From assembly GCA_964291415.2 (NCBI GenBank), contig OZ219917.1:96001-160000 (forward strand): DNA of 64,000 nucleotides, read 5' to 3'. Shown one piece after another: positions 4,722-28,862 of the stretch (position 1 is the first letter of the stretch; each line of letters opens with the position of its first letter). Origin of the DNA: Alphaproteobacteria bacterium. GTDB lineage: Bacteria > Pseudomonadota > Alphaproteobacteria > SP197. The translations under genes were made by a program, and so were the position numbers. A model generated the notes under the pieces. That model saw only the letters and a program-made list of their open reading frames with translations. It had not been told where the DNA came from and made no database searches.

Positions 4722-5864
4722 ATGACCGGGGCCGCCAGACCCGAACTCCCGCTCGCCGGCCACACGGTGGTCGAGATCGGCTCCTCGGTCGCCGCGCCCT
4801 ACGCGACATGGATCCTCGGCATGCTGGGCGCCGACGTGATCAAGGTGGAGAACGCCGAAGGCGGCGACGACGCCCGGCGCTGGGGCCGCATGTTGCCAGA
4901 CGGACGGTCGTCCTTCTTCCTGGCGCTCAATGGCAACAAGCGCTCGGTGCGGGTCAACCTCAAGGACGAGGCCGACCACGCCTGGCTCGCCCGTTCGTGC
5001 GCCGGGGCCGACGTCGTCGTGCAGAACATGCGGCCCAACAAGATCGCGCGCTACGGTCTCGACGGTCCCTCGCTGGTCGCGGCCAACACGCGCCTGGTCT
5101 ACTGCAACCTCGGCGCCTTCGGCGCCACGGGACCCATGAAGGACCGGCCCGGCTACGATCCCTTGATGCAGGCCGCAGGTGGCATCATGAGCGTCACCGG
5201 CGAGCCTGACCGGCCGCCCGTGCGCGTCGGCGTGTCGATCGTCGACATGGGAACGGGCATGTGGTGCGGCATCGGCATCCTTGCCGCGCTCTACGCGCGC
5301 AGGGAGACCGGGCGGGGCTGCATCGTCGATGCCTCGCTCTACGAGACCGCGCTCGGCTGGGTCGCGAACCAGGCCGCCATGGTGCAGGTGGACGGCGTCA
5401 ACCCGGAAAGGGTCGGCTCGGGCGCGCGTGGCCTGGCGCCCTACCAGGCCTATCGCTGCCGTGACGGCTGGCTGGTGGTGAGCGCACCCAACGACCGTCT
5501 CTTCGAACGGCTTGCCGGAGTGCTCGGTCATCCAGAGTGGCCAGGGGACGAACGCTTCTCCGGCAACCAGGAGCGCTACGCCAATCTCGGCGATCTCAAT
5601 GCGCTCATCGAGCCGATCCTCGCGGCCCGGACCCGCGATCACTGGATCGGCGTGCTCGATGACGCAGGCGTGCCCTGCGCGCCGGTGCGGGAGATCACCG
5701 AGATGCTGGCCGATCCGCAGACTGAAGCTCTCGGCATCCTCCAGCGTCTGGGCGCCGAGATTCCGCTGATGGGCCTGCCGCTCAGTTTCGACGGTATCCG
5801 GCCGCCGCTGCGCAGCTTGCCGCCGGATTTCGGCGAGCACGACGCACTGAAGGAGGAGAAATGA
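4722..5864 (+). CDS. Class III (CaiB/BaiF) CoA-transferase
   Basis: LGADVIKVE, NGNKRSV, RPGYDPLMQA, catalytic Asp in SIVDMGTG. Confidence 0.93.
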   Translation: MTGAARPELPLAGHTVVEIGSSVAAPYATWILGMLGADVIKVENAEGGDDARRWGRMLPDGRSSFFLALNGNKRSVRVNLKDEADHAWLARSCAGADVVVQNMRPNKIARYGLDGPSLVAANTRLVYCNLGAFGATGPMKDRPGYDPLMQAAGGIMSVTGEPDRPPVRVGVSIVDMGTGMWCGIGILAALYARRETGRGCIVDASLYETALGWVANQAAMVQVDGVNPERVGSGARGLAPYQAYRCRDGWLVVSAPNDRLFERLAGVLGHPEWPGDERFSGNQERYANLGDLNALIEPILAARTRDHWIGVLDDAGVPCAPVREITEMLADPQTEALGILQRLGAEIPLMGLPLSFDGIRPPLRSLPPDFGEHDALKEEK

Positions 5865-6655
5865 GGAGCGATTTCGAAACGCTGACGCTCGAGCGCGTGG
5901 GCGATCACGTGCTGCTGGTCACGCTCAACCGTCCGGAGGTGCTGAACGCGACCAACACGACGATGGGCCGCGAACGCCTGGAGCTCTTCGGCGGCCTCTA
6001 CGTCGACCAGGAGGACGTGCGCTCAATCGTGCTGACCGGCGCCGGCCAGAGGGCGTTCAGCGCCGGTGGCGATCTCAAGGAACGCAAGGGCATGTCGGAT
6101 GCCGACTGGCGCCGCCAGCACGCGATCTTCGAGCAGGGCGCCATGGCGCTCAAGCAGTGCCCCGTGCCGGTGATCGCGGCGGTCAATGGCGTGGCTTTCG
6201 GCGGCGGCTGCGAAACCGTGCTCTCCTGCGACTTCGCCTATGCCTCGTCGACCGCGATGTTTGCGCTGACCGAGGTGAAGATCGGCATCCTGCCGGGCAC
6301 CATGGGCACCCAGCAGCTGCCGCGCGCCGTGGGCGAGAGACGGGCCAAGGAGATCCTGATGACCGGCATGCCGTTCACGGCCGGGGAGGCTTTCGCGTGG
6401 GGACTGGTCAACCGCGTGTGCGAGCCCGACCGCCTGCTGGAGGAGGCACTCGAGACCGCGAGAGTGATCGCCGGCAACGCGCCGCTCGCCGTGCAGCGCA
6501 TCAAGCGCGCCGCCGGCGTCGCAGGCGATCTTGACCTCGCCTCCGGCTTCCAGTTCGAGCTGGAGGCCTACAACAGGCTGGTCGTCACCGAGGACCGCCA
6601 GGAGGGCGTCAACGCCTTCAACGAGAAACGCAAACCGCAGTTCAGGGGCAGGTGA
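5861..6655 (+). CDS. Enoyl-CoA hydratase/isomerase
   Basis: AFSAGGDLKE, AAVNGVAFGGGCE, TEVKIGILPG; ATGA overlap with the upstream gene. Confidence 0.93.
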   Translation: MRSDFETLTLERVGDHVLLVTLNRPEVLNATNTTMGRERLELFGGLYVDQEDVRSIVLTGAGQRAFSAGGDLKERKGMSDADWRRQHAIFEQGAMALKQCPVPVIAAVNGVAFGGGCETVLSCDFAYASSTAMFALTEVKIGILPGTMGTQQLPRAVGERRAKEILMTGMPFTAGEAFAWGLVNRVCEPDRLLEEALETARVIAGNAPLAVQRIKRAAGVAGDLDLASGFQFELEAYNRLVVTEDRQEGVNAFNEKRKPQFRGR

Positions 6656-6656
6656 G

Positions 6657-7601
6657 ATGAGCGAGATCGATGTCGTCGTCCAGGAGGTCGGTCCGCGGGA
6701 CGGGCTGCAGAATGTCGAGCGGACCATGCCGACGGATGCCAAGATGGAGTGGATCGGCGCGGTCTGCGAGGCGGGCGTCCCGCAAGTCCAGGTCGGCAGC
6801 TTTGTGCCGCCCAGGCTGATTCCGCAGCTTGCCGACACCGCCGAGATCGTCCGGCGTACGCGTGAAGGCTGGCCCCGGGTGGCCCTCTCCGTGCTGATTC
6901 CGAACCTGAAAGGCGCCGAGCTCGCCTTGCCGACCGGGCCCGACCAGGTGGCCTTCGTGCTCTCTGCCTCGGCCGCCCACAACGAGCGCAACGTGCGCCG
7001 CCCCGTCGACGAGTCGCTTGCCGACTTCGCCCGCATCGTGGCGCTGCGCAACGAGCTCGATCCCCGGCGCCGCGTGAAGGTATCGGGCGGCATCGCGACG
7101 GCGTTCGGCTGCACCATGCAGGGAGAGGTGCCGGAGGCGGAGGTTCTGCGCCTGGCCGTGACGCTGGCCGAGGCCGGCGCCGACCGCATCGGCATCGCCG
7201 ACACCGTGGGCTACGCCAACCCCGGGCAGGTGCGGCGTGTGTTCACGGATGTGCGGGCGGCCATCGGCCCCGAGATTGCGCTCGGCGCGCACTTCCACGA
7301 CACCCGCGGTCTCGGACTCGCCAACGTGCTGGCCGCGCTGGAGGCGGGCGTGCGCCAGTTCGACGGCGGCATGGGCGGCCTCGGCGGCTGTCCCTATGCG
7401 CCCGGCGCCACCGGCAACATCGTCACGGAGGATCTCGTCTTCATGCTCGAATCCATGGGGCTCAGAACAGGCATCGACCTCGAGAGGCTGGTCGCTGCGC
7501 GGCGCATCATGGAAGCGCACCTGCCGGGCGAGCCGACCCATGGCACCTTTGTCAAGGCCGGCGCGCCCAAGGGCTTCGTGCCCGCGAGCCGGGCGGCCTG
7601 A
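6657..7601 (+). CDS. Hydroxymethylglutaryl-CoA lyase family
   Basis: EVGPRDGLQN, IADTVG, HFHDTRG, GGLGGCPYAPGATGN. Confidence 0.93.
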   Translation: MSEIDVVVQEVGPRDGLQNVERTMPTDAKMEWIGAVCEAGVPQVQVGSFVPPRLIPQLADTAEIVRRTREGWPRVALSVLIPNLKGAELALPTGPDQVAFVLSASAAHNERNVRRPVDESLADFARIVALRNELDPRRRVKVSGGIATAFGCTMQGEVPEAEVLRLAVTLAEAGADRIGIADTVGYANPGQVRRVFTDVRAAIGPEIALGAHFHDTRGLGLANVLAALEAGVRQFDGGMGGLGGCPYAPGATGNIVTEDLVFMLESMGLRTGIDLERLVAARRIMEAHLPGEPTHGTFVKAGAPKGFVPASRAA

Positions 7602-7603
7602 CC

Positions 7604-8788
7604 ATGGCGGAGATGCCGGTGATGGAGCTCGGCGAGGACTATCCCGAGCTGCGCCGCCAGGTGATGCGACTGTGTGCCCGCTTTCCCGGGGAGTACTGGC
7701 GCGAGCTCGAAAGGCAGCCGGTCGACACGTCCTATCCCACGGCATTCATCGACGCCATGACCGAGGCAGGCTATCTCGCCGCGCTGATCCCCGAAGACTA
7801 CGGCGGGTCGGGCCTGCCGCTGCGCGCCGGCGCCGTGATCCTCGAGACGGTCAACCGCTGCGGCGGCAGCGCCGCGGCCGGTCATGCCCAGATGTACACG
7901 ATGGGCACGGTGCTGCGGCATGGCAGCGACGCGCAGAAACGAAAGTACCTGCCCAGGATTGCCTCGGGCGAACTGCGCCTGCAGGCCTTCGGCGTCACCG
8001 AGCCGGCGTCGGGTTCGGACACGACGCAGATCGCCACGCGGGCCGAACGCACGAACGAAGGCTACGTCATCAACGGACAGAAGGTCTGGATCAGCCGCGC
8101 ACTGCACTCCGACCTGATGCTGCTGCTTGCGCGCACGACGCCGCTCGCCGACGTCGAGAAGCGACACCACGGCATCTCGACGTTCCTGATCGATCTCCGG
8201 GATGCGCAACGCAACGGCTGCACGATCCGTCCCATCGACGCCATGATCAATCACAACACCACCGAGGTGTTCTTCGACAACGTCGTGGTGCCCCACGATG
8301 CGCTGATCGGCGAGGAAGGCCGGGGGTTCCGCTACATCCTCGACGGCATGAACGCCGAGCGTTGCCTGACGGCATCGGAGGCGATCGGCAACGGCCGCTA
8401 CTTTGTCGACAAGGCCGTGGCCTACGCCAGCGAGCGCGTCGTGTTCGGCCGGGCCATCGGCCAGAACCAGGGCATACAGTTCCCGATCGCCGAGGCCCAC
8501 ACGCATCTCGAGGCGGCCGAGCTGATGGTGCGCAGAGCCACGGCGCTGTTCGACGCCGGCGAGCCCTGCGGCGCCGAGGCCAACATGGCGCGCTATCTCT
8601 CGTCGAAGGCGGCCTGGGACTGTGCCGAGGCCTGCTTCACGGCCCATGGCGGCTTCGCCTTCGCCCGCGAGTACGACATCGAGCGCAAGTGGCGCGAGGC
8701 GCGCCTGTCGCGCACCGCGCCCATCTCACCCAACCTGATCCTGAGCTTCATCGCCCAGCACGTTCTGGGCCTCCCCAGGTCGTACTGA
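7604..8788 (+). CDS. Acyl-CoA dehydrogenase
   Basis: IPEDYGGSG, FGVTEPASGSD, INGQKVWIS, HGGFAFAREYDIER, VLGLPRSY. Confidence 0.93.
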   Translation: MAEMPVMELGEDYPELRRQVMRLCARFPGEYWRELERQPVDTSYPTAFIDAMTEAGYLAALIPEDYGGSGLPLRAGAVILETVNRCGGSAAAGHAQMYTMGTVLRHGSDAQKRKYLPRIASGELRLQAFGVTEPASGSDTTQIATRAERTNEGYVINGQKVWISRALHSDLMLLLARTTPLADVEKRHHGISTFLIDLRDAQRNGCTIRPIDAMINHNTTEVFFDNVVVPHDALIGEEGRGFRYILDGMNAERCLTASEAIGNGRYFVDKAVAYASERVVFGRAIGQNQGIQFPIAEAHTHLEAAELMVRRATALFDAGEPCGAEANMARYLSSKAAWDCAEACFTAHGGFAFAREYDIERKWREARLSRTAPISPNLILSFIAQHVLGLPRSY

Positions 8789-18650: not shown

Positions 18651-19488
18651 TCAGGTCCTGACGACGAGCCGTTGGTTTGGCCACGGGTGGCGGATGCTGG
18701 CTTTGGGCCAGTGGGCGGCGGTGAGGAGGTCAATATCCGTCCATTCGGTGCGATCCTTCTGAGATCGTCGCCGAAGCGCACACCTGAACAGCCTGCGGCA
18801 TTGGCGTATGAACCTCTGCAAGTCATGGCCGCTCCCGGGGACGGCAAAGTAGTTGAGCCAGCCATTGATAACTCGCCCAAGCCACTTGGCCGTTTCGTGC
18901 CGGTTGTCGTGCCACCGCATGCTCAGTGCCTCCTTGATCCGCCGCAGAGTGCGGCGGACCCGTTTCCGGGACGGTTTGCGGCCAACCCTGAACCGGCCAT
19001 TCCTCGTCTGCTCGCAGAAGTGCGTCATGCCGAGAAAGTCAAACGTCTCCGGCTTGCCCTGCCCCCGCTTGCGGCGGTTCGCTCTCGCAAACCGACCGAA
19101 CTCGATGAGCCGGGTCTTGTCCGGATGCAGTTCCAGTCCATAGCGGGCCAGCCTCTCCCCGAGGTCCCGGAGGAAGCGCTTCGCATCGCCCAGATGCTGG
19201 AAGCCGCACACAAAATCATCGGCATAACGCACGATGATGGTGTCGCCTCCAGCCATCCGCTTGCGCCATGTGTTGTGGAACCAGTCGTCGAGCACGTAGT
19301 GCAGATAAACGTTCGCAAGGCAGGCCGATACAATCGCCCCCTGCGGCGTTCCCCTGCCGGTGTCCGACCAGTCGGCCCCCTCCATGACGCCGGCGTTGAG
19401 CCACTTGACGATCAGCCTGATGACCCGCTTGTCCCCGATACGTTTCTCGAGCATCCGAACCAGATGGTCCCGGCCGAGATTGTCGAAG
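18651..19488 (-). pseudogene. ltrA: Intron A RT/maturase, C-terminal half
   Basis: FDNLGRDHLVRMLEKRIGD..., GTPQG, RYADDF, FDFLG, GWLNYF, IRHPWP. Confidence 0.92.
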
Positions 19489-19813
19489 GACCACCCGACA
19501 CACTACCCACCTCCGTGAGCTTCCGGTCTCGGTCAGGATTACGCGCGAGGCGCATCCCTATCAGGGCCAGTCGCTTGAAGTCCTGAAGCAGATTCGCCGG
19601 CAGGACGGCGTCCTGCTTCTTCTCCTTCTTGGTCCTGACGGCAGCCGCCGTCTTGTTCCCGTCGAGTGGACGGATGCCGTGCCCGGCGATGCCACCGGAC
19701 AACCGGGGACCGGTCATCAACTCACAGCCGGACCGCACGATCTGTTGCACTTGCGATCTCTCGTCGATGCTCTGCTCGCTCGTTCTGAAGCGGAGCCCTG
19801 TCGATGCAACTGA
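19481..19813 (+). CDS. DUF5372/Y4bD-like accessory protein (no clear start codon within the element)
   Basis: Manual translation ...HTTHLRELPVSVRITREAHPYQGQSLEVL...GPDGSRRLVPVEWTD...DLLHLRSLVDAL; not in the ORF track. Confidence 0.6.
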   Translation, partial: CRRTTRHTTHLRELPVSVRITREAHPYQGQSLEVLKQIRRQDGVLLLLLLGPDGSRRLVPVEWTDAVPGDATGQPGTGHQLTAGPHDLLHLRSLVDALLARSEAEPCRCN

Positions 19814-19963
19814 ACCTGATCTTTCCGGGAACCCGGGAACCGCACGAGGAGCTGTGGACAGCCCTCGACGAGGAGACACGCCGCGTCGTGCTCGGAACGG
19901 CTGGCCGAGGTCATCGCCAAGGCGGCACCGGAGAAGCCCCAGGCGGAGAGCATCGGACCATGA
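19804..19963 (+). CDS. Small accessory ORF of the recombinase element (one extra base near 19895)
   Basis: MQLNLIFP...LWTALDEETRRVVL[ER]LAEVIAKAA...; stop overlaps the recombinase ATG (ATGA). Confidence 0.55.
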
Positions 19964-22172
19964 CTGATGGCAAGATCTGTGCTGCACATCGGCAACGCCG
20001 TGCCCTCGTGTACGTCCGCCACGTCCTCGCCGTCCCAGGTCGAGAACAACCGCGAGTCGACCCGGCGCCAGTACGCCCTGGCCGATCGCGCCCGTGATCT
20101 GGGGTGGCACTCCGACCGGATCACGATCGTCGACGAGGACCTCGGCCTCTCGGGCGCCACTGCCGAAGGACGCAGCGGCTTCGCGCGCATGACCGCCGAA
20201 GTGGCCCTCGGCCAGGTCGGGCTCCTGCTCGGGCTCGAGGTGTCGAGACTCGCCCGCAACAACGCCGACTGGTACAGACTGCTTGACCTGTGCGGATTGA
20301 CCGACACCCTGATCGGCGACGCCGACGGCATCTATCATCCCGGCCTGTTCAACGACAGACTCGTCCTGGGACTGAAGGGCACCATGAGCGAGGCGGAGCT
20401 TCATATCCTGCGAGCACGGCTCGATGGCGGAATCCGCAACAAGGCGGCGCGCGGTGAGCTCTACCGAGGACAGCCCATCGGATACATCCGGGGCGAGGCC
20501 GGCGCCGAGATCCTTCTCGACCCCAATGAGGAGGTTCAGGCCGCGATCCGCGCCGTGTTCGAACGATTCGCCGAGTTCGGATCGGCACGCCGGGTGTGGC
20601 GCTGGTTCGTGATGGAGAAGCTGCACTTTCCCCACCGCTTCCACCGCCATGCCGAGCTTCGCTGGGAACCGCCCGCCTATCACACCATCCATGAAGTGCT
20701 GACCAATCCGGTCTATGCCGGCGCCTACGCTTACGGCAAGTCGCGGCGTGAGCGCCATGTCGACGAGAACGGCATCGTGCGCACGCGCATCCGCAGGCTG
20801 CCCCGCTCCGAATGGCAGGTACTGATCCACGACCATCATCCCGCCTATATCGACTGGTCCACCCACGAAGCCATTCTCGAGCGCCTGTCGCGCAACACCC
20901 GGCCGCTGTCGCATGGCGCGGGCAAGGGAGCGGTGCGTGAGGGAACGGCCTTGCTGCAGGGTCTCGGCATCTGTGGCGAGTGCGGGCGCCGCCTGGCGAC
21001 CCACTACACCGGCCGGACCTCCTCGCCCGGATATCATTGCAGGGGCAAGGAGCTGGTCGAGGCGCGGCGCTCCCTGTGCTTGCATGTGGGGGCCGTGCAG
21101 ATCGACCAGGCGGTCGCCAAGGCCGTCCTGGAGGCGATCCGACCGGCCGGCATCAAGGCCGCCTTGCAGGCGGTCGAGCGCATCGAGGCGGACTACGATC
21201 AGGCGCTCAAGCAATGGGGGCTCACCGTCGAGCGAGCACGTTACGAGGCCGAGAAGGCCGAGCGCCGGTATCGCGCTGTCGAGCCCGAACATCGTCTCGT
21301 CGCCCGCGGGCTGGAACGGGAATGGGAGCAGTGTCTGAACGCACTCGAAGAAGCGCAGAATGAGATGGAGCGGCGTCATCGCGACCGGCCGCGCCAACTC
21401 GATGCCGCCGAGCGCGATTCGCTCCTGGCCCTCGGCGAGGATCTCCAGCGCGCCTGGGATGCGCCCACGACGACGGCTCGCGACAGGAAGGAGCTGCTGC
21501 GCACGGTGCTCGATGAGGTCATCGTTCTTGCCCCGCGCGGCGAGTATCATATCCACCTGACACTGCGCTGGCGGACCGGGTTGTTGACCGAGATCGAACT
21601 CGAGCGCCCGCGCAAACGACGGGCGGCGGTCCGCACCGACGACGACATCATCGATCTGGTCCGCCGCCTCGCTCAGTTCCATTCCGATGCGGTGATCGCC
21701 GCCATACTCAATCGCCAGGGCAAGACAACCGCCTACGGGCATCCCTTCAATGTCCATCGCGTCGGCAATCTCCGCCGGCACTGGAGCATTCCGTGCTTCG
21801 ATCCAGCGACCGCGGCCACCGATGGCGAGCTGGTCAACATCGCCCAGGCGGCGAAGATACGTCGGCATCGCAACCTCGACGGTGCATCGATGGCTCAATG
21901 ACGGCTTCATCGACGGTGAGCAAGTCACGCCGGGAGCCCCGTGGCGCATCCGCATCACGGACGCGTTCCGTCCCAGGCTCATGGAAGAGGCGCCGCCCGG
22001 CTACGTCCCGATGATCGAGGCCATGCAGCGTCTCGGTGTGACCCGTCAGACCGTGTTGCAACGTGTAAAGCGTGGCGAACTCGACGCCATCCATGTCCGC
22101 GCCGGAAGAAAAAAGGCTCTACGTATCAGGGTTGTAGACGATAAGCCGGACCTCTTCGGTCACTCCGCATAA
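19960..22172 (+). CDS. Large serine recombinase (resolvase, recombinase, Zn ribbon, C-terminal HTHs); +1 frameshifts near 20021 and 21861
   Basis: After removing one base each: ALVYVRQSSPSQV, DEDLGLSG, EVSRLARN, LTNPVYAG, CGECG, AAKILGIATSTVHRW, LGVTRQTVLQRVKRG. Confidence 0.9.
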
Positions 22173-22193
22173 GCTGGGGGACACGTATGACAA

Positions 22194-22842
22194 TGTCGAA
22201 GAATCCGCTGATATCCGCGTCCAGCACCCAGTTGACCTTGCGCCGCTCAATCCCGACCGTGACCGCGTCGAGCGCATCGTGCGCCCCGCGCCCCGGGCGG
22301 AACCCATAGCTGAAGCCGAGGAACTCCGTCTCGAAGATCGGCACCAGGATCGTGTCTGTCACCGCGCGCTGGACGATCTTGTCCTCCAGCGCGGCGATGC
22401 CGAGCGGTCGTTGCCCACCGTCCTCTTTGGGAATGTAGACCCGCCGTGACGGCAGCGCCCGGTACGCTCCCCTATGCAGGCGGCCCTGCAGGTCGCTCAG
22501 GCGACCGTCCAGACCGTCCGCGTAGTGGGCCCACGTCACGCCGTCGACCCCGGCCGCCGCGTCCTTCCTCAACGAGTGGAACGCGTCGCTCAGGGCCTCT
22601 GTCGTGATGTGGTGGAGGAGCGCAACAAGACGCTCTCCCGGGTTCCTCTTGGCTGCTGCCCGTATCCGGTCCGCCGCCTGTGGCACGCTTTCCCGCTTCT
22701 GGGCACGGCGCGTGGCGCGACTTTCCGGCTTCCCCTCAGGTCCGGCCCTTCGCTCCACGAGCTCCGCCGGCGCCAAGGCGCCTTTGTTCGCTCGCTTCAT
22801 CGCTACTATGGCCGAATCCGACTTCTCCAAATCGTTCGTCAT
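22194..22842 (-). pseudogene. ltrA: Intron A RT/maturase, N-terminal half
   Basis: AAGVDG, RRVYIPK.DG..RPLGI, EDKIVQ, SYGFRPGRGAHDAL, WVLDADISGFFD. Confidence 0.92.
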
Positions 22843-23193
22843 CAGTTACGGACTTCTCCTTTCATCAGCGGCCCCGTACGACACGGGGCGACTTGGAGAC
22901 CTCCCGGGTCCCGGCAGAAGGCGTGCATACGTGCCTGGGTTCTCAGACGCCGCGGAGCCGGCTCGACCCTCGTCCTGTCGGTCCGAGCCGTGTTGCCTTC
23001 GACCCCTAGGACGGTCTCGGCACTCCGAACTTGGGATTTCGGCGCTCAATAGCCCCGCCCGCATACCCCGCTACCGACGCTTCACCGACAGCCTCACGAC
23101 TGCCCGCGCACGGCTCGCGGAGAAGGTTGGCTGACTAGGCCTTACCTCCAGCGGACTTTCACCGCCTCCCTTCTGCCAGTTGGCCCGGCACTC

Positions 23194-23493
23194 CCCAGGT
23201 CCCGGTGGACTGCTTCGGCGCGTGCCATGGTTCTTTGACCCCGCGGAGCCCCTCGTCACCTCACCAAAACGACTCAACGGGTGTTGCCTTCGGCTCACGG
23301 GACGGCCTCGGCACTCCAGATCACTAGCTTTTCGGGTCTCGATAGCCCGGCCCACGCTTGCCCCCCCAACGCTTCGCCTGCCGCCTCGCGACGACCGACG
23401 CATGGTTTGCGGGGAAAGTGGTTGGTTGAGCTCTGTTTCTGCTTCTGCCAGGACATTCACCCGGCAACATTCCCACCAGTTTGCCTGGCGCAC
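23194..23493 (-). mobile_element. 5' (domain I) fragment of an outer group II intron hosting intron A
   Basis: Starts GTGCGCCAGGCAAACTGG; carries the same DI motifs as introns A and B (GAAGCGT, GAGTGCCGAG...GAAGGCAACAC, CTCCGCGG, CCGGGACCTGGG); no matching 3' part found. Confidence 0.78.
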
Positions 23494-24331: not shown

Positions 24332-25186
24332 AAAGGGGCGTTGCAGAATGCTGATGGTGCTCGGACAACGACCGACAACCTATGCAAGCGTGAGTATCTC
24401 CAGATCTTTCCTACCGGCATGTTGTCCAGAGACAGAAGGGACAAAAATGTGATTCGGGCCATGAGTTGCGCACTGATAACATGTCGCACCATCAGGAAGA
24501 TTGCTGCGACGACACTGCGGGAACAAACCGAGATGCGTGCTGAGACTGAATCACAGGCGAGTTTCCCAGTTGTGCGACGAGAATGCTCCAAGTCCAACGT
24601 CTAGCCCGCTTTGGGGTGACCTCCGTTGGTTGCCACGGTCACCCGTCTTCCGTAATGGGGCGTTCGCCGTCAAACGCGATTTGTCGCATGGTTGTCTCCT
24701 AGACACCAAATTGCGCGGGAGGTTGGCCCCGACCGGCGCCGGGGTCAATAGGGCCGAACGAAGGGCTGAAACGGTTGCCTCCCATATGCTCCGCTCAACG
24801 GTAACGGTGATTGTGCTGTCGCCGCAGAGGTTCTGCGCATTCGCCTCGATTGCCACCGGGAACGTGCTCCCCGACCACGCGGGGATGAACCAACGTCCGT
24901 GATGCGGGCCCGGACTGCCGCAGCGAGCGACCCACGGCGGACCGGTGGAACCCCATGGCTGCCATGCGCCTCTGCCCGTCTATCCAGGGGTGCCTTTCGC
25001 TGCCGGTATCGGGTACAGTTGCTCTCGAACGAAAGTGCCGATGAGGGAGACTCCACGGCGGGGAGGCGGCACGCTCCTGTCGCACGAGAGGAAACATCCC
25101 CATGGCGCCGAGCCGCCCCCCGGTCGCTCTGTCGCAACCGCTTCCCACCAACACCGCACCTGCGGTCACTTAGTCGCGGTAGGGAT

Positions 25187-25530
25187 CCAGCCAGCCAGAT
25201 GCTGTCGGCCACATCCGTTTTGCGTCCCTTGATCTGCTTGACGTGCTGGGCATGGACCAGCACAGGCTTGATGCCGGCGTCCTCGAGAGCCTGGAAGGGC
25301 GCCTCCCAGTAGATGCCGGTGCCCTCCATCACGGCGGCGCTCACCCGATGCTCCTGGAGCCAGCGCACCATCCCGGCAAGGCCCTTGGGGAAGGCGCTGA
25401 ACTGCCGGGTCTCGACAACCGCCTCCTTGCCGGGCTGTGCGATCCTCACGCTCGCCGTGATCTCGACCTTGTGGATGTCAAGACCGGCCGCACGCTCATG
25501 GATGACATTGAGATGATCGTTTTCTACCAT
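25187..25530 (-). pseudogene. IS110-family recombinase N-terminal RuvC/DEDD domain (frame stays open into unrelated sequence to 24745)
   Basis: AGLDIHK, VMEGTGIYW, HVKQIKGRKTDVADSIWLA; GGAGG RBS. Confidence 0.88.
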
Positions 25531-26001
25531 GACGCTTCCTCCGTCTGTTGGGGGTGGCGGAAGCGGGAGACCTCCGGACAGCTGACAGATATCGATGGCG
25601 ACATCGTGCGTTTTGCTGTTCGTCCACGGATTGAACCGGGTACTTCGCGGGGTGCGAACCGTCAGTCTGGGACAGTTTGTTAACGGGCATGAAGCCTCGA
25701 AATTAAAGCGTCCACGAGCCCGCTTCCGCCGTGAGTGTGTTGCACTCAAGGCAGGCGGACAATACGCGCCCGACTCCGAGCAGGCCTGTTACATCAACAC
25801 GCCGGGTGTGCCTGAAACGACAGGATCATGGCAGTTTGTTTGTCCACATGCGGTCCGGTGTTCCGACATTCCGGTTTCTGCGCCCTGTGGCCAGGGGGAC
25901 GTGCAGCTCGTGATCCAGGAAGCATGAGTGGGCTGCCTTCCCTTGATCACGGTAACGTGACCTGACGTGAGGGCGCCGGGCGGTGCTGTGACCACGTTCA
26001 T

Positions 26002-26340: not shown

Positions 26341-28509
26341 TCACGCCGGCAACCGTGCCGGTGCTTCGGGCGACCAGCAGCGCTGTTCCCGCAGCAGGGC
26401 GTTCGCCAGCACGATGAGTTTGCGCATGAGGGCGACGATCGCCACCTTGTGGGCCTTGCCGGCGGCCTTGAGGCGTTCGAACACGCTTGCGAGATCCTGG
26501 TTGCAGCGTGATGCCGTGGTGGCGGCCATGAACAGGAGATCGCGTGGCCTGCGGCGCCCGCCGCGAATGTGCCGGGTGCCGTGGTGCTGGCCGCTGTCGT
26601 CGGCAACCGGCGCCACTCCGATCAACGCCGCCGCCTGGCGACCCTCGAGACTGCCGAGTTCGGGCATCCAGCAAAGAAGGGCGGCGGCGGTCACCGGACC
26701 GACGCCGGGGATCGAGATCAGGATGCCGTACTTCTCGGCCTGCTCGGGATCACCGGCGATCACCGCTTCGATCGCCGCATCCAGTGCGGCAATCCTCTCG
26801 TCGAGATCGGCGACCGTGGCCCGTGTGAGGGTCTCGCCCTCGCCGTCCACCTCACCCGCCACCTGCCTCAGCATCTTGCGTGCATCGACATGCCTGGCGC
26901 GCACCACCAGGAGGTCCTCCAGGCGGTTGAGGAACGCCTCCTGGGGAGCCACGGGCTCAAGGTCGTCGAGCACCGTCCCGAGCCTGGCCAGCATCAACGC
27001 GTCGACGCGGTCGGTTTTGGCCAGATGGCCCAGCGCCTCGGCGAAGCGCCGGGTCGGCCATGGATGGCGGATACGCAGCTGCGGCCAGAACGCACGCGCC
27101 AGAGAACCAACGGTGGCCAAAGTGGCACGATCCATTTGGGACCGACGCCGCAGCACACGGCACCAGATCTTTAGAAGTCGCCGCACGAACCGCTTGAGGG
27201 ACAGGAAGCTGGTGGAGACGGCATAGTAGCCGAGCCAACCATCAACGACCCTTCCGAGCCATTTGGCCACTTCATACCGGTTGTGGTGCATGCGGTGGCG
27301 CAGAACCGTCCGGAGACGAGCCAGGGTTCGGGTGACCCGTTGCCTGGCCGGCTTGCGCCCCAACCCGAAGCCTCCGCTCCGCGTGGTTCGGCAGCAATGC
27401 GTGAACCCGAGGAAGTCGAAGGTTTCGGGACGCCGTTCCCCTCGTGCCCGACGGTTCGCCATGGCGAACTTTCCGAACTCGAGGAGACGGGTCTTGGCAG
27501 GGTGAAGTTCCAGCGAGAACCGAGCCAGTCGTTCCTTCAGATCGTCGAGGAACCGTTCCGCGTCCTGCCGATGCTGGAATCCGACCACGAAGTCATCGCC
27601 GTATCGCACGATGAACGTGACACCACGGGCTGTCTGGGTGCGCCACTTCTTCTGGAACCAGAGGTCGAGGGCGTAGTGGAGGTAGATGTTCGCCAGAATC
27701 GGCGAGACGACCGAACCCTGCGGAGTGCCCCGCAGGTTGTCCCTCCATTCACCCTCGTCCATGGCACCGGCATGGAGCCACTTGGCGATCAGCCGGATGA
27801 CCCGTCTGTCACCAATGCGGTGTTCCAGGAACCGGAGAAGACATCGTCGGTCAATTCGGTCAAAGTAGGACCGAATGTCCGCGTCAAGGATCCAGTTGAT
27901 GGAGCACCGTTCTATCCCGTAGGCCAGAGCATCGAGCGCGTCATGCGCCCCGCGCCCCGGTCGGAACCCATAGCTGAACCCGAGGAACTCCGGCTCCCAG
28001 ATTGGCTCAAGGATGGTCTCGACCACCGCCTTCTGGACGATCTTGTCCTCCAGCGCAGCGATGCCAAGCGGTCGTGTCCCCCCGTCCGGCTTCGGGATGT
28101 TCACCCGTCGGGACGGGAGCGCTCGGTACGCGCCGCTGTGAACACGGTCATGCAGGGCGAGCAGACGCTCGTTCAGTCCATGTCCGTATTCGTGCCACGT
28201 CACCCCGTCCACCCCTGCCGCCGCGTCCTTCTTCAACGAGAAGTAGGCAGCGCCGAGAGCGTCCGTCGTGATGTGGTGCAACAGCGCAGTGAGCCTCTCC
28301 TTCGGAGTCCTCGTGGCCCTTTGCCGTATCCGCTCCGCCGCCTGTGACATGCGAGCCCGGCCCTGTGTCCGGTGCATGCTTTGGTGTCGCGGATTCCTCT
28401 TGGTTTCGGCCCTTCGCTCCATCGCCTCCGCCAGAGCCTCGGTTCCCTTGTTCGGCGACTTCACAGCTACTATGCCCGAATCCGATTGCTTCAACTCGTC
28501 CATCTTCAT
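26341..28509 (-). CDS. In-frame fusion of group II intron RT/maturase and the C-terminal half of an IS110 recombinase (722 aa)
   Basis: RT motifs through GTPQG, RYGDDF, IRHPWP, then RRFAEALGHLAKTDRVDA, SIPGVGPVTAA, GVAPVADDSG, RHIRGGR, KAHKVAIVALMRKL. Confidence 0.9.
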   Translation of the reverse strand: MKMDELKQSDSGIVAVKSPNKGTEALAEAMERRAETKRNPRHQSMHRTQGRARMSQAAERIRQRATRTPKERLTALLHHITTDALGAAYFSLKKDAAAGVDGVTWHEYGHGLNERLLALHDRVHSGAYRALPSRRVNIPKPDGGTRPLGIAALEDKIVQKAVVETILEPIWEPEFLGFSYGFRPGRGAHDALDALAYGIERCSINWILDADIRSYFDRIDRRCLLRFLEHRIGDRRVIRLIAKWLHAGAMDEGEWRDNLRGTPQGSVVSPILANIYLHYALDLWFQKKWRTQTARGVTFIVRYGDDFVVGFQHRQDAERFLDDLKERLARFSLELHPAKTRLLEFGKFAMANRRARGERRPETFDFLGFTHCCRTTRSGGFGLGRKPARQRVTRTLARLRTVLRHRMHHNRYEVAKWLGRVVDGWLGYYAVSTSFLSLKRFVRRLLKIWCRVLRRRSQMDRATLATVGSLARAFWPQLRIRHPWPTRRFAEALGHLAKTDRVDALMLARLGTVLDDLEPVAPQEAFLNRLEDLLVVRARHVDARKMLRQVAGEVDGEGETLTRATVADLDERIAALDAAIEAVIAGDPEQAEKYGILISIPGVGPVTAAALLCWMPELGSLEGRQAAALIGVAPVADDSGQHHGTRHIRGGRRRPRDLLFMAATTASRCNQDLASVFERLKAAGKAHKVAIVALMRKLIVLANALLREQRCWSPEAPARLPA

Positions 28510-28862
28510 TTCGGATCGTTTCCTTCCTTCCGCGGCCCCGGTACGACAACCGGGGCAAGTTGAAGCCCTCCCGAGTCCCGGTGCAGGGGTGTACGTGCGT
28601 CCCTGGATTCCTCTGACACCGCAGAGCCCGGTCTGTCCTCACCAAAGCGGACATGCCGGTGTGGCCTTCGGCAGATATCAGTGCCTCGGCACTCTGGAAC
28701 TTAACCTTTACGGTGCTCAATCATCCCGGCCACACGCACCGCTACCGACGCTTCGGCCGTGCCCTCACAGGCGCGTCCGCACGGCTCGCGGTGGAAGTGG
28801 AGGTTACCCTTTCTTCCCGTCGGACTTTCACCGACTCCCCTGCGCCAGTTAGCTCGGCGCAC

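Follow-up and report, generated by a model that had tools for sequence, protein, structure and literature searches.

Introduction

Phage integrases of the large serine recombinase (LSR) type are known for single specific attB sites. The clostridial LSRs TnpX (Tn4451) and TndX (Tn5397) instead move non-phage elements by way of a circle and choose their targets by a short core; these elements bring resistance or conjugation genes along as cargo and insert at many sites built around a GA core. The insertion sequence (IS) IS607 has a protein of ~200 aa with an N-terminal helix-turn-helix (HTH) and without recombinase or zinc-ribbon domains. Group II introns, for their part, are usually seen as parasites hiding in other mobile DNA, and RmInt1, which lies in ISRm2011-2, is a mobile element homing into another mobile element. 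Group IIC-attC introns are described in an excerpt of PMC3001079 as homing into integron attC sites. Herein, we analyze a 64,000-nucleotide stretch of an Alphaproteobacteria bacterium (GenBank assembly GCA_964291415.2, contig OZ219917.1, positions 96,001 to 160,000; "the window", in whose coordinates positions are given unless stated otherwise), in which the reverse transcriptase (RT) gene of a group II intron is itself interrupted by a small element encoding a serine recombinase.

We put a probability of roughly 0.9 on the reading that this is an autonomous, IS-sized (~2.71 kb) LSR element targeting the RT motif codons of group II introns, and hence a parasite of a mobile element. The only genes of the element are those for a DUF5372 (Y4bD/Y4pK) protein and a 736-aa LSR. 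Full-text literature searches, with supplementary tables and subscription journals outside their scope, found no description of it. The excerpt of PMC10083194 nowhere contains the term "reverse transcriptase" and uses "intron" a single time, with a different meaning; the excerpts of PMC4853749 and PMC9203015 are likewise not relevant.

The Interrupted Reverse Transcriptase Gene

Sequence reading places an insert of 2,713 bp at 19488-22200, where it interrupts a group II intron RT gene. In silico deletion of 19489-22201 yields a single open RT frame of 492 aa that reads DADISGFFDNLGRDHL, with ...VLDADISGFFDNLGRDHLVRMLEKRIG... around the join. This open frame bears out the first-pass annotation of the stretch, made from the sequence alone, which held that excision restores a full RT. 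The host is a mobile group II intron, having RVT_1 and GIIM in two halves and D1-D4 RNA directly upstream. The open reading frame (ORF) 18651-19454 on the minus strand covers RVT_1 profile positions 100-204 and GIIM in Pfam, and its frame continues to the junction, reading (F)DNLGRDHLVRMLEKRIG once the element is removed in silico. ORF 22126-22842, also on the minus strand, covers RVT_1 profile positions 1-82, and its translation ends ...LDADISGFFD. The features of the locus are as follows.

18651-19485, minus strand: C-terminal half of the group II intron RT/maturase gene and target-derived arm to the crossover (ORF 18651-19454).
19486-19487, plus strand: left AA crossover dinucleotide, corresponding on the RT strand to TT in the second Phe codon (junction alignment).
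19487-19959, plus strand: small DUF5372 (Y4bD/Y4pK) ORF, without a start codon inside the left end (copy 2 frame, Pfam).
19488-19513, plus strand: left element end, the P' arm of the predicted attP, GGACCACCCGACACACTACCCA... (conserved in 73 loci).
19960-22172, plus strand: large serine recombinase gene, 736 aa in copy 2 (Pfam, invariant residues).
22173-22198, plus strand: right element end, the P arm of the predicted attP, with a G-rich Shine-Dalgarno-like run and ATG at 22187-22189 (family consensus).
22199-22200, plus strand: right AA crossover dinucleotide (junction alignment).
22201-22842, minus strand: N-terminal half of the RT gene, ending ...LDADISGF-F (ORF 22126-22842).
22938-23159, minus strand: host intron RNA domains D1-D4, just 5' of the RT start (Rfam RF02005, group-II-D1D4-6, 172.5 bits, E 3.6e-50).

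The insert had been assigned to intron domain IV. The D1-D4 match upstream fits that position; no domain V match was found downstream in the window at the Rfam gathering threshold. A second group-II-D1D4-6 RNA match (107.3 bits) lies at 23229-23448 on the minus strand, directly upstream of the host D1-D4 match. It looks like a tandem or nested intron fragment, and the host intron may therefore miss its normal 5' part.

A Second Copy and a Family-Wide Target

The same genome (G000) holds a second copy of the element at G000:C1:1158983-1161700 on the minus strand. It is 99.6% identical to window 19482-22203, with 2 mismatches and a few 1-2 bp indels, and the identity extends to nothing beyond, so that the boundaries of copy 2 confirm the element limits independently of an 8-bp repeat found at the window junctions. 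Copy 2 has an open recombinase frame of 736 aa, in which the catalytic motif reads VYVRQSS and two HTH motifs are C-terminal. Its host intron shows Rfam matches to D1D4-3 and D1D4-1 upstream and to domain V downstream, the window host being D1D4-6, and the N-terminal halves of the two host RTs are 32-34% identical. Copy 2 splits its host RT at the same FFD codons, since the translation breaks off after ...VVDLDLEKF and resumes at (F)DRVNHDILMGL. Because two near-identical elements thus occupy the same codon of two unrelated introns, shared descent and chance are excluded.

Relatives of the recombinase are very many, with 64-100% identity and ~735 aa, and those with a name go by nothing more specific than "recombinase family protein" or "DNA invertase Pin-like". 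The contig measures 2.5-3.0 kb for about one-third of the best 120 homologues, which is what a repeat that long would give. A metagenome scan, queried with an alignment of 25 recombinase homologues, confirmed at least 596 relatives; the best 80 of these, picked on recombinase similarity alone (56-85% identity), formed the survey set. Searching them by tblastn with the four RT halves of G000 found an RT half at 77 of the 80 loci, and at 76 once position and strand were required. Where flanks reached at least 90 nt, 59 of 69 on the left and 60 of 65 on the right had an RT match. All RT matches were antisense to the recombinase, with 0 on its strand. At the three loci with no tblastn match (L070, L075 and L089), RT-motif codons were read by eye at a junction. 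We rebuilt attB for the 52 loci in which both junctions could be anchored, and every translation (52/52) fits [DE]x[DG][ILVFM]xx[FYC]F[DGN], the typical target motif being D-x-D-(I/L)-x-x-(F/Y)-F-D. Rfam matches to group II intron RNA, of classes D1D4-1, -2, -3, -4 and -6, were obtained in 16 of 20 loci scanned. The first-pass annotation had proposed a compact hyperparasite that uses a conserved RT catalytic sequence, and had asked whether the flanks of homologues are RT genes split at the same codon or unrelated sites. Close homologues occupy the same codon of many different RT genes, and this family-wide target, together with copy 2, supports the proposal.

The host range takes in Alpha-, Beta- and Gammaproteobacteria and metagenome bins labeled Acidobacteria. 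The same RT flanks are found on plasmids, with examples in Pseudomonas putida pWW53, a Mycetohabitans rhizoxinica megaplasmid, and Mesorhizobium pMspAR02c. DNA searches of the Mesorhizobium and Mycetohabitans plasmid records with the element and the RT halves gave one partial element copy and no second composite of intron and element. On pWW53 (L110, NC_008275.1 72509-81703), the element adjoins xylS, and its recombinase gene is annotated as two coding sequences; the N-terminal half of the RT is shortened to ~80 residues, and the C-terminal half carries a further insertion of ~2 kb. The recombinase match on pDK1 (NC_014124.1) is identical to that of pWW53, at 64.3% identity.

In the window itself, the RT of intron B (~27040-28828, minus strand) is uninterrupted and shares 60-65% identity with the host RT; its FFD site, TAC TTT GAC, is empty. 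The empty site had been taken to fit sequence specificity. The family provides no evidence for this, as L060 and L093 carry an element at exactly this combination of codons, and all three codons, taken singly, are frequent at occupied sites. RT queries detect 3 RT genes in G000, 2 of which are occupied.

This distribution bears on two other explanations. It is very improbable that the element is a domesticated switch, kept by host or intron to toggle the RT/maturase by regulated excision in the manner of skin in sigK or the fdxN element. Such a role would agree with the exact restoration of the RT frame on excision and with the best NCBIfam match, the fdxN-element recombinase XisF, though its 76.9 bits fall far below the cut-off of 375. 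It agrees poorly with near-identical elements in unrelated introns, with a patchy occurrence (close relatives at E <= 1e-150 in 3 of 401 sampled genomes of the window's class, G000 counted), with the many homologues on contigs of repeat length, and with the decay seen in several copies. The overall pattern is that of a selfish element, and no regulatory input is visible.

Still less credible is a single ancient insertion inherited vertically with the intron, the shared position then being due to common descent. One locus, L012, could be a shared ancestral insertion, as its recombinase is 89% identical and lies in an RT 71-83% identical to that of the window. The explanation is already contradicted by the two G000 copies, whose divergent host RTs belong to introns of different classes, and by L039 and L056, whose recombinase DNA is 99.3% identical and whose flanks are only 22-38% identical. 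Across the survey, 8 pairs of elements had recombinase DNA at least 90% identical, and the 11 possible flank comparisons (7 pairs) gave 22-70% identity. Because near-identical recombinases have flanks this dissimilar, the insertions were repeated and independent, and they support the autonomous element over inheritance in place.

Crossover and Attachment Sites

Junctions of 63 loci were aligned on conserved internal anchors. The left junction reads ...TC(G/A)-AA-GGAAGCCACGACACACTACCCA... and the right junction ...GGGGGCAGTATGAAGCAGGATCC-AA-(G/A)(A/T)A..., with AA at a fixed register in 62 of 63 left and 61 of 63 right junctions. This dinucleotide is the sole invariant sequence common to both junctions. 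The base before the left AA and the bases after the right AA vary with the target codons, which at the crossover are TTC or TTT for the second Phe and TTC, TTT, TAC or TAT for Phe/Tyr; the other sides are constant element sequence. Since the sequence switches from target to element exactly there, the predicted site of exchange is AA, which reads TT in the second Phe codon when seen from the RT strand. The fixed antisense orientation of the element follows from this 2-bp core being non-palindromic.

The 8-mer TGTCGAAG had been put forward as the core. It does stand at both ends of the window insert (19481-19488 and 22194-22201, plus strand), the crossover being the AA dinucleotide within the junctions. 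The repeat alone is weak evidence, because the window contains 7 occurrences where 2.55 are expected, and 1 of 100 shuffles reached 7 as well. An ordinary transposon that duplicates 8 bp (TGTCGAAG) on insertion can be dismissed: the direct repeat at both window ends is what it would leave, and yet the need for one repeat copy to restore the RT equally fits a shared core, the only enzyme is a serine recombinase with no DDE transposase, and the explanation is already contradicted by copy 2 and the family junctions, which have only AA (plus G) in common. Target-site duplication by a transposase, chance coincidence and a single ancestral insertion are all rejected as readings of the locus.

The left-end consensus across 73 loci is GGAAGCCACGACACACTACCCACC, and the right-end family consensus is GGGGGCAGT-ATG-AAGCAGGATCC. 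Together the ends make an imperfect inverted repeat, pairing at 15 of 26 consensus positions, with 13.6 per locus against 7.0 ± 2.2 in shuffled arms. Inverted-repeat arms of this kind around AA should be the form expected of an LSR attP. Copy 2 and the family give ...TCC-AA-GGA..., by which the attP reconstructed in the first-pass annotation is wrong in 6-8 bases left of the core. In attB, conservation is confined to codon positions one and two of the motif residues, amounting to ~15 well-conserved bases in 62. Because only codon-constrained target bases are conserved, the recombinase must, on the evidence of these alignments, accept very degenerate attB sites.

State of the Window Copy

Compared with copy 2, the window copy as assembled has extra single bases at 19803, 19894, 19955, 20022, 21861 and 22184, and one substitution at 22181. 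Its right end is 2 nt shorter with one further change, or with 3 further changes in all when the right end is compared as a whole. All six extra bases create a new CpG. Those at 20022 and 21861 split the recombinase gene into ORFs 19967-21901 and 21750-22172, the first of them frameshifting the catalytic region, and those at 19803, 19894 and 19955 break the frame of the small ORF. The right end of copy 2 reads ...ATGCTTCC-AA-G, the family consensus there being (A/T)TCC-AA-G. The 8-mer at the right end of the window copy exists because this end is two bases shorter, and it is peculiar to the window copy as assembled.

Contigs of sequencing run X1, which contain 81% of the stretch's words, lack all five testable extra bases at full depth, including that at 20022. 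In one X1 contig the match to the window ends at 22180 and 24 more letters follow, just as many as a copy-2-type end would have before the two flanks diverge. The frameshifts of the window copy are probably assembly errors, and the right-end 8-mer may be one as well. Since the X1 contigs lack all five extra bases and copy 2 is open over 736 aa, the window recombinase gene is probably intact in reality, and the frameshifted gene reported in the first-pass annotation is probably not real. The CpG-creating extra bases look like a systematic assembly or base-calling error, which may also affect other genes of the assembly.

Recombinase and Small Gene

The recombinase has the Pfam domains Resolvase, Recombinase, Zn_ribbon_recom and HTH_17. 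In the copy 2 protein, the catalytic domain PF00239 is N-terminal at residues 16-166 (E 1.3e-16), PF07508 lies at residues 191-312 and PF13408 at 331-389, and an extra C-terminal region of ~250 aa carries two excisionase-type HTH_17 motifs. Residues Y18, R20, S22, R71, S95, R96 and R99 do not vary among 25 homologues (65-100% identical), nor do the zinc-ribbon cysteines C338, C341, C360 and C373. A family profile matches solved SPbeta integrase chains (E 4e-11, residues 64-525). By its domains, invariant residues and junction anatomy, the predicted enzyme is a large serine recombinase. The IS607 transposase model matches weakly, and only at residues 686-719 (24.2 bits against a cut-off of 110). 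Membership of the IS607 family was ruled out by the N-terminal catalytic domain and the 736-aa length with LSR domains.

Between the left end and the start of the recombinase gene lies a conserved frame of ~160-175 codons, which ends no more than 4 nt from that start in 46 of 63 loci. In copy 2 this small ORF is an open frame of 157 codons whose stop overlaps the recombinase ATG (ATGA), and the small gene and the recombinase gene are predicted to be translationally coupled. Pfam DUF5372 (PF17342) was the only family matched in 10 of 11 small proteins scanned. The protein of this element scores 24.1 bits (E 3.7e-5) against a gathering score of 25; of nine other members, for all of which it is the sole family match, 3 pass at 26.9-30.9 bits and 6 score 19.3-22.1. 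NCBI gives close homologues the name "Y4bD/Y4pK family protein", and the PGAP annotation of three plasmids gives only a ~55-aa fragment of the small ORF. A profile search of PDB sequences for the fold of the small protein returned nothing better than E 0.34.

The right end of the element carries, in 63 loci, a conserved G-rich run and an NTG (54 ATG, 6 GTG, 2 CTG and 1 TTG) 14 nt before the core. When the right and left ends are joined at AA in silico, the frame from the NTG stays open over 100 codons or more at 62 of the 63 loci; the junction frame is broken with the window right end as assembled and open with that of copy 2. This suggests that the small gene would be whole only in an excised circle and that the recombinase would, by coupling, be fully translatable only there. 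Two points limit this reading. With the spacing set by the att site, the loci do not count as independent trials, and the position of the NTG is inside the presumed recombinase-binding arm. The evidence for a circle-dependent operon is modest.

The leaders of the small protein were surveyed in 120 database homologues, among which 67 start within the domain, 42 have longer flank-derived leaders, 4 have fewer than 5 residues, and 7 have 5 residues. P0128 (165 aa, ENA contig of 2,107 nt) alone among the 120 begins with the very leader that a circle or tandem junction is predicted to give and is a lead to a possible assembled junction. A simple sigma-70 scan found no promoter in copy 2, a result that is uninformative in either direction, and no RNA data set with the locus turned up in the run listing.

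Paralogue and Neighboring Genes

G000 contains a third recombinase gene, of 694 aa and 39% identity, preceded by a small ORF of 148 codons with an ATGA overlap. This paralogue is located at ~5525-8100 of locus L011 (G000:C2 ~1271525-1274100) inside an IS66-family element, where it splits the IS66 tnpB (orf2) between ...FRGRRGDRV and KVIWWDG. Its small protein has no DUF5372 match in Pfam. The arrangement hints that related elements specialize on conserved codons of other mobile elements.

One distant homologue (37% identity) is present in six copies (L014-L019) in a single Planctomycetota chromosome. In the copies inspected, the flanks are tandem-repeat arrays on both sides, with periods of 12, 61 and ~100 nt, and are not RT or IS66 sequence. 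In the window, a 334-aa ORF at 24745-25749 on the minus strand has a middle part that resembles an IS110-type transposase, its translation being judged by eye, and ends in an unusual tail rich in Arg and Ser; a further mobile-element gene with a frameshift may lie here.

Discussion

Our findings reveal a two-gene element with a constant junction register that is found across the survey at the same RT codon and that has moved recently between unrelated introns. From this anatomy we propose that the element excises as a circle carrying attP, a ~50-bp imperfect inverted repeat around AA, and that the LSR would integrate this circle by conservative site-specific recombination into attB, the DNA encoding D-x-D-(I/L)-x-x-(F/Y)-F-D. 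Crossover would take place in the TT of the second Phe codon, leaving the element always antisense to the RT. Integration would split the RT, and excision would restore it exactly, without target duplication. Tolerance of degenerate attB sites would allow the element to colonize introns of several structural classes and of many bacterial lineages.

Several observations weigh against this interpretation. In the assembly, the recombinase gene of the window copy is broken and its right end aberrant; this copy could be dead if the assembly is right, and copy 2 could still move it. In the survey, 10 of 69 left and 5 of 65 right flanks had no RT match; most of these flanks are 100-200 nt long, and some right ends are rearranged (L077, L078 and L099). 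Thirteen distant homologues (33-46% identity, from Planctomycetota and Rhodobacter bins) had neither RT nor IS66 flanks, and because they are not in RT genes, the RT target is a property of the clade of ~55% identity or more. No circle or empty-site joint (19487 to 22201, or the back-joint) was seen in the run contigs, which represent assembled sequence only, and an IUPAC pattern scan for the predicted attP gave no match in viral contigs or in the 112 loci collected.

A wider proposal is tentative and, in our judgment, somewhat short of an even chance. It holds that DUF5372-plus-LSR elements form a broader set of hyperparasites with motif-specific victims (the group II intron RT for this element, IS66 tnpB for the paralogue in G000), and that this element has an operon completed by the circle and an LSR that reads a codon skeleton of ~15 fixed bases in 60 rather than a unique sequence. 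If this were true, the circular form would give a burst of integrase for re-insertion, followed by near silence once integrated.

The element is widespread, it parasitizes introns, and its landing pad is the most conserved RT codons, which makes it a clean natural case of hyperparasitism among mobile elements. It may account for many intron RT genes that look "broken" and for many unexplained annotations as "recombinase family protein", among them those on the well-studied TOL plasmids pWW53 and pDK1. An LSR predicted to tolerate a very degenerate attB is also of interest for DNA recognition by LSRs and for efforts to find multi-targeting integrases. The uncharacterized DUF5372/Y4bD-Y4pK family, in turn, gains a testable context with a serine recombinase as partner.

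Compared with known systems, the element shares with the phage LSRs (Bxb1, phiC31 and SPbeta SprA/YokA) the order of resolvase, recombinase, zinc-ribbon and coiled-coil-like stretches, a 2-bp non-palindromic crossover, inverted-repeat attP arms, and the lack of target duplication. It differs from them in being a multi-copy, two-gene unit of ~2.7 kb without phage or cargo, in an attB that is a degenerate protein-coding motif in many non-orthologous genes, and in the extra C-terminal region of ~250 aa. Unlike the TnpX and TndX elements, this family has no cargo and uses one functional target class, the RT FFD codons. The skin element with SpoIVCA in sigK and the fdxN element with XisF likewise place an LSR element inside coding sequence, where precise excision restores the gene. 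Those elements are single-copy, immobile, developmentally timed and in host genes, whereas this family is multi-copy, horizontally spread and in a mobile-element gene. IS607 is likewise of IS size and moved by a serine recombinase. RmInt1 and the group IIC-attC introns follow the same strategy, in which a conserved sequence of another mobile element serves as a safe and self-renewing landing site. Here the roles are reversed: the intron is the victim, the reaction is predicted to be serine recombination, and the site is a codon of the RT catalytic motif.

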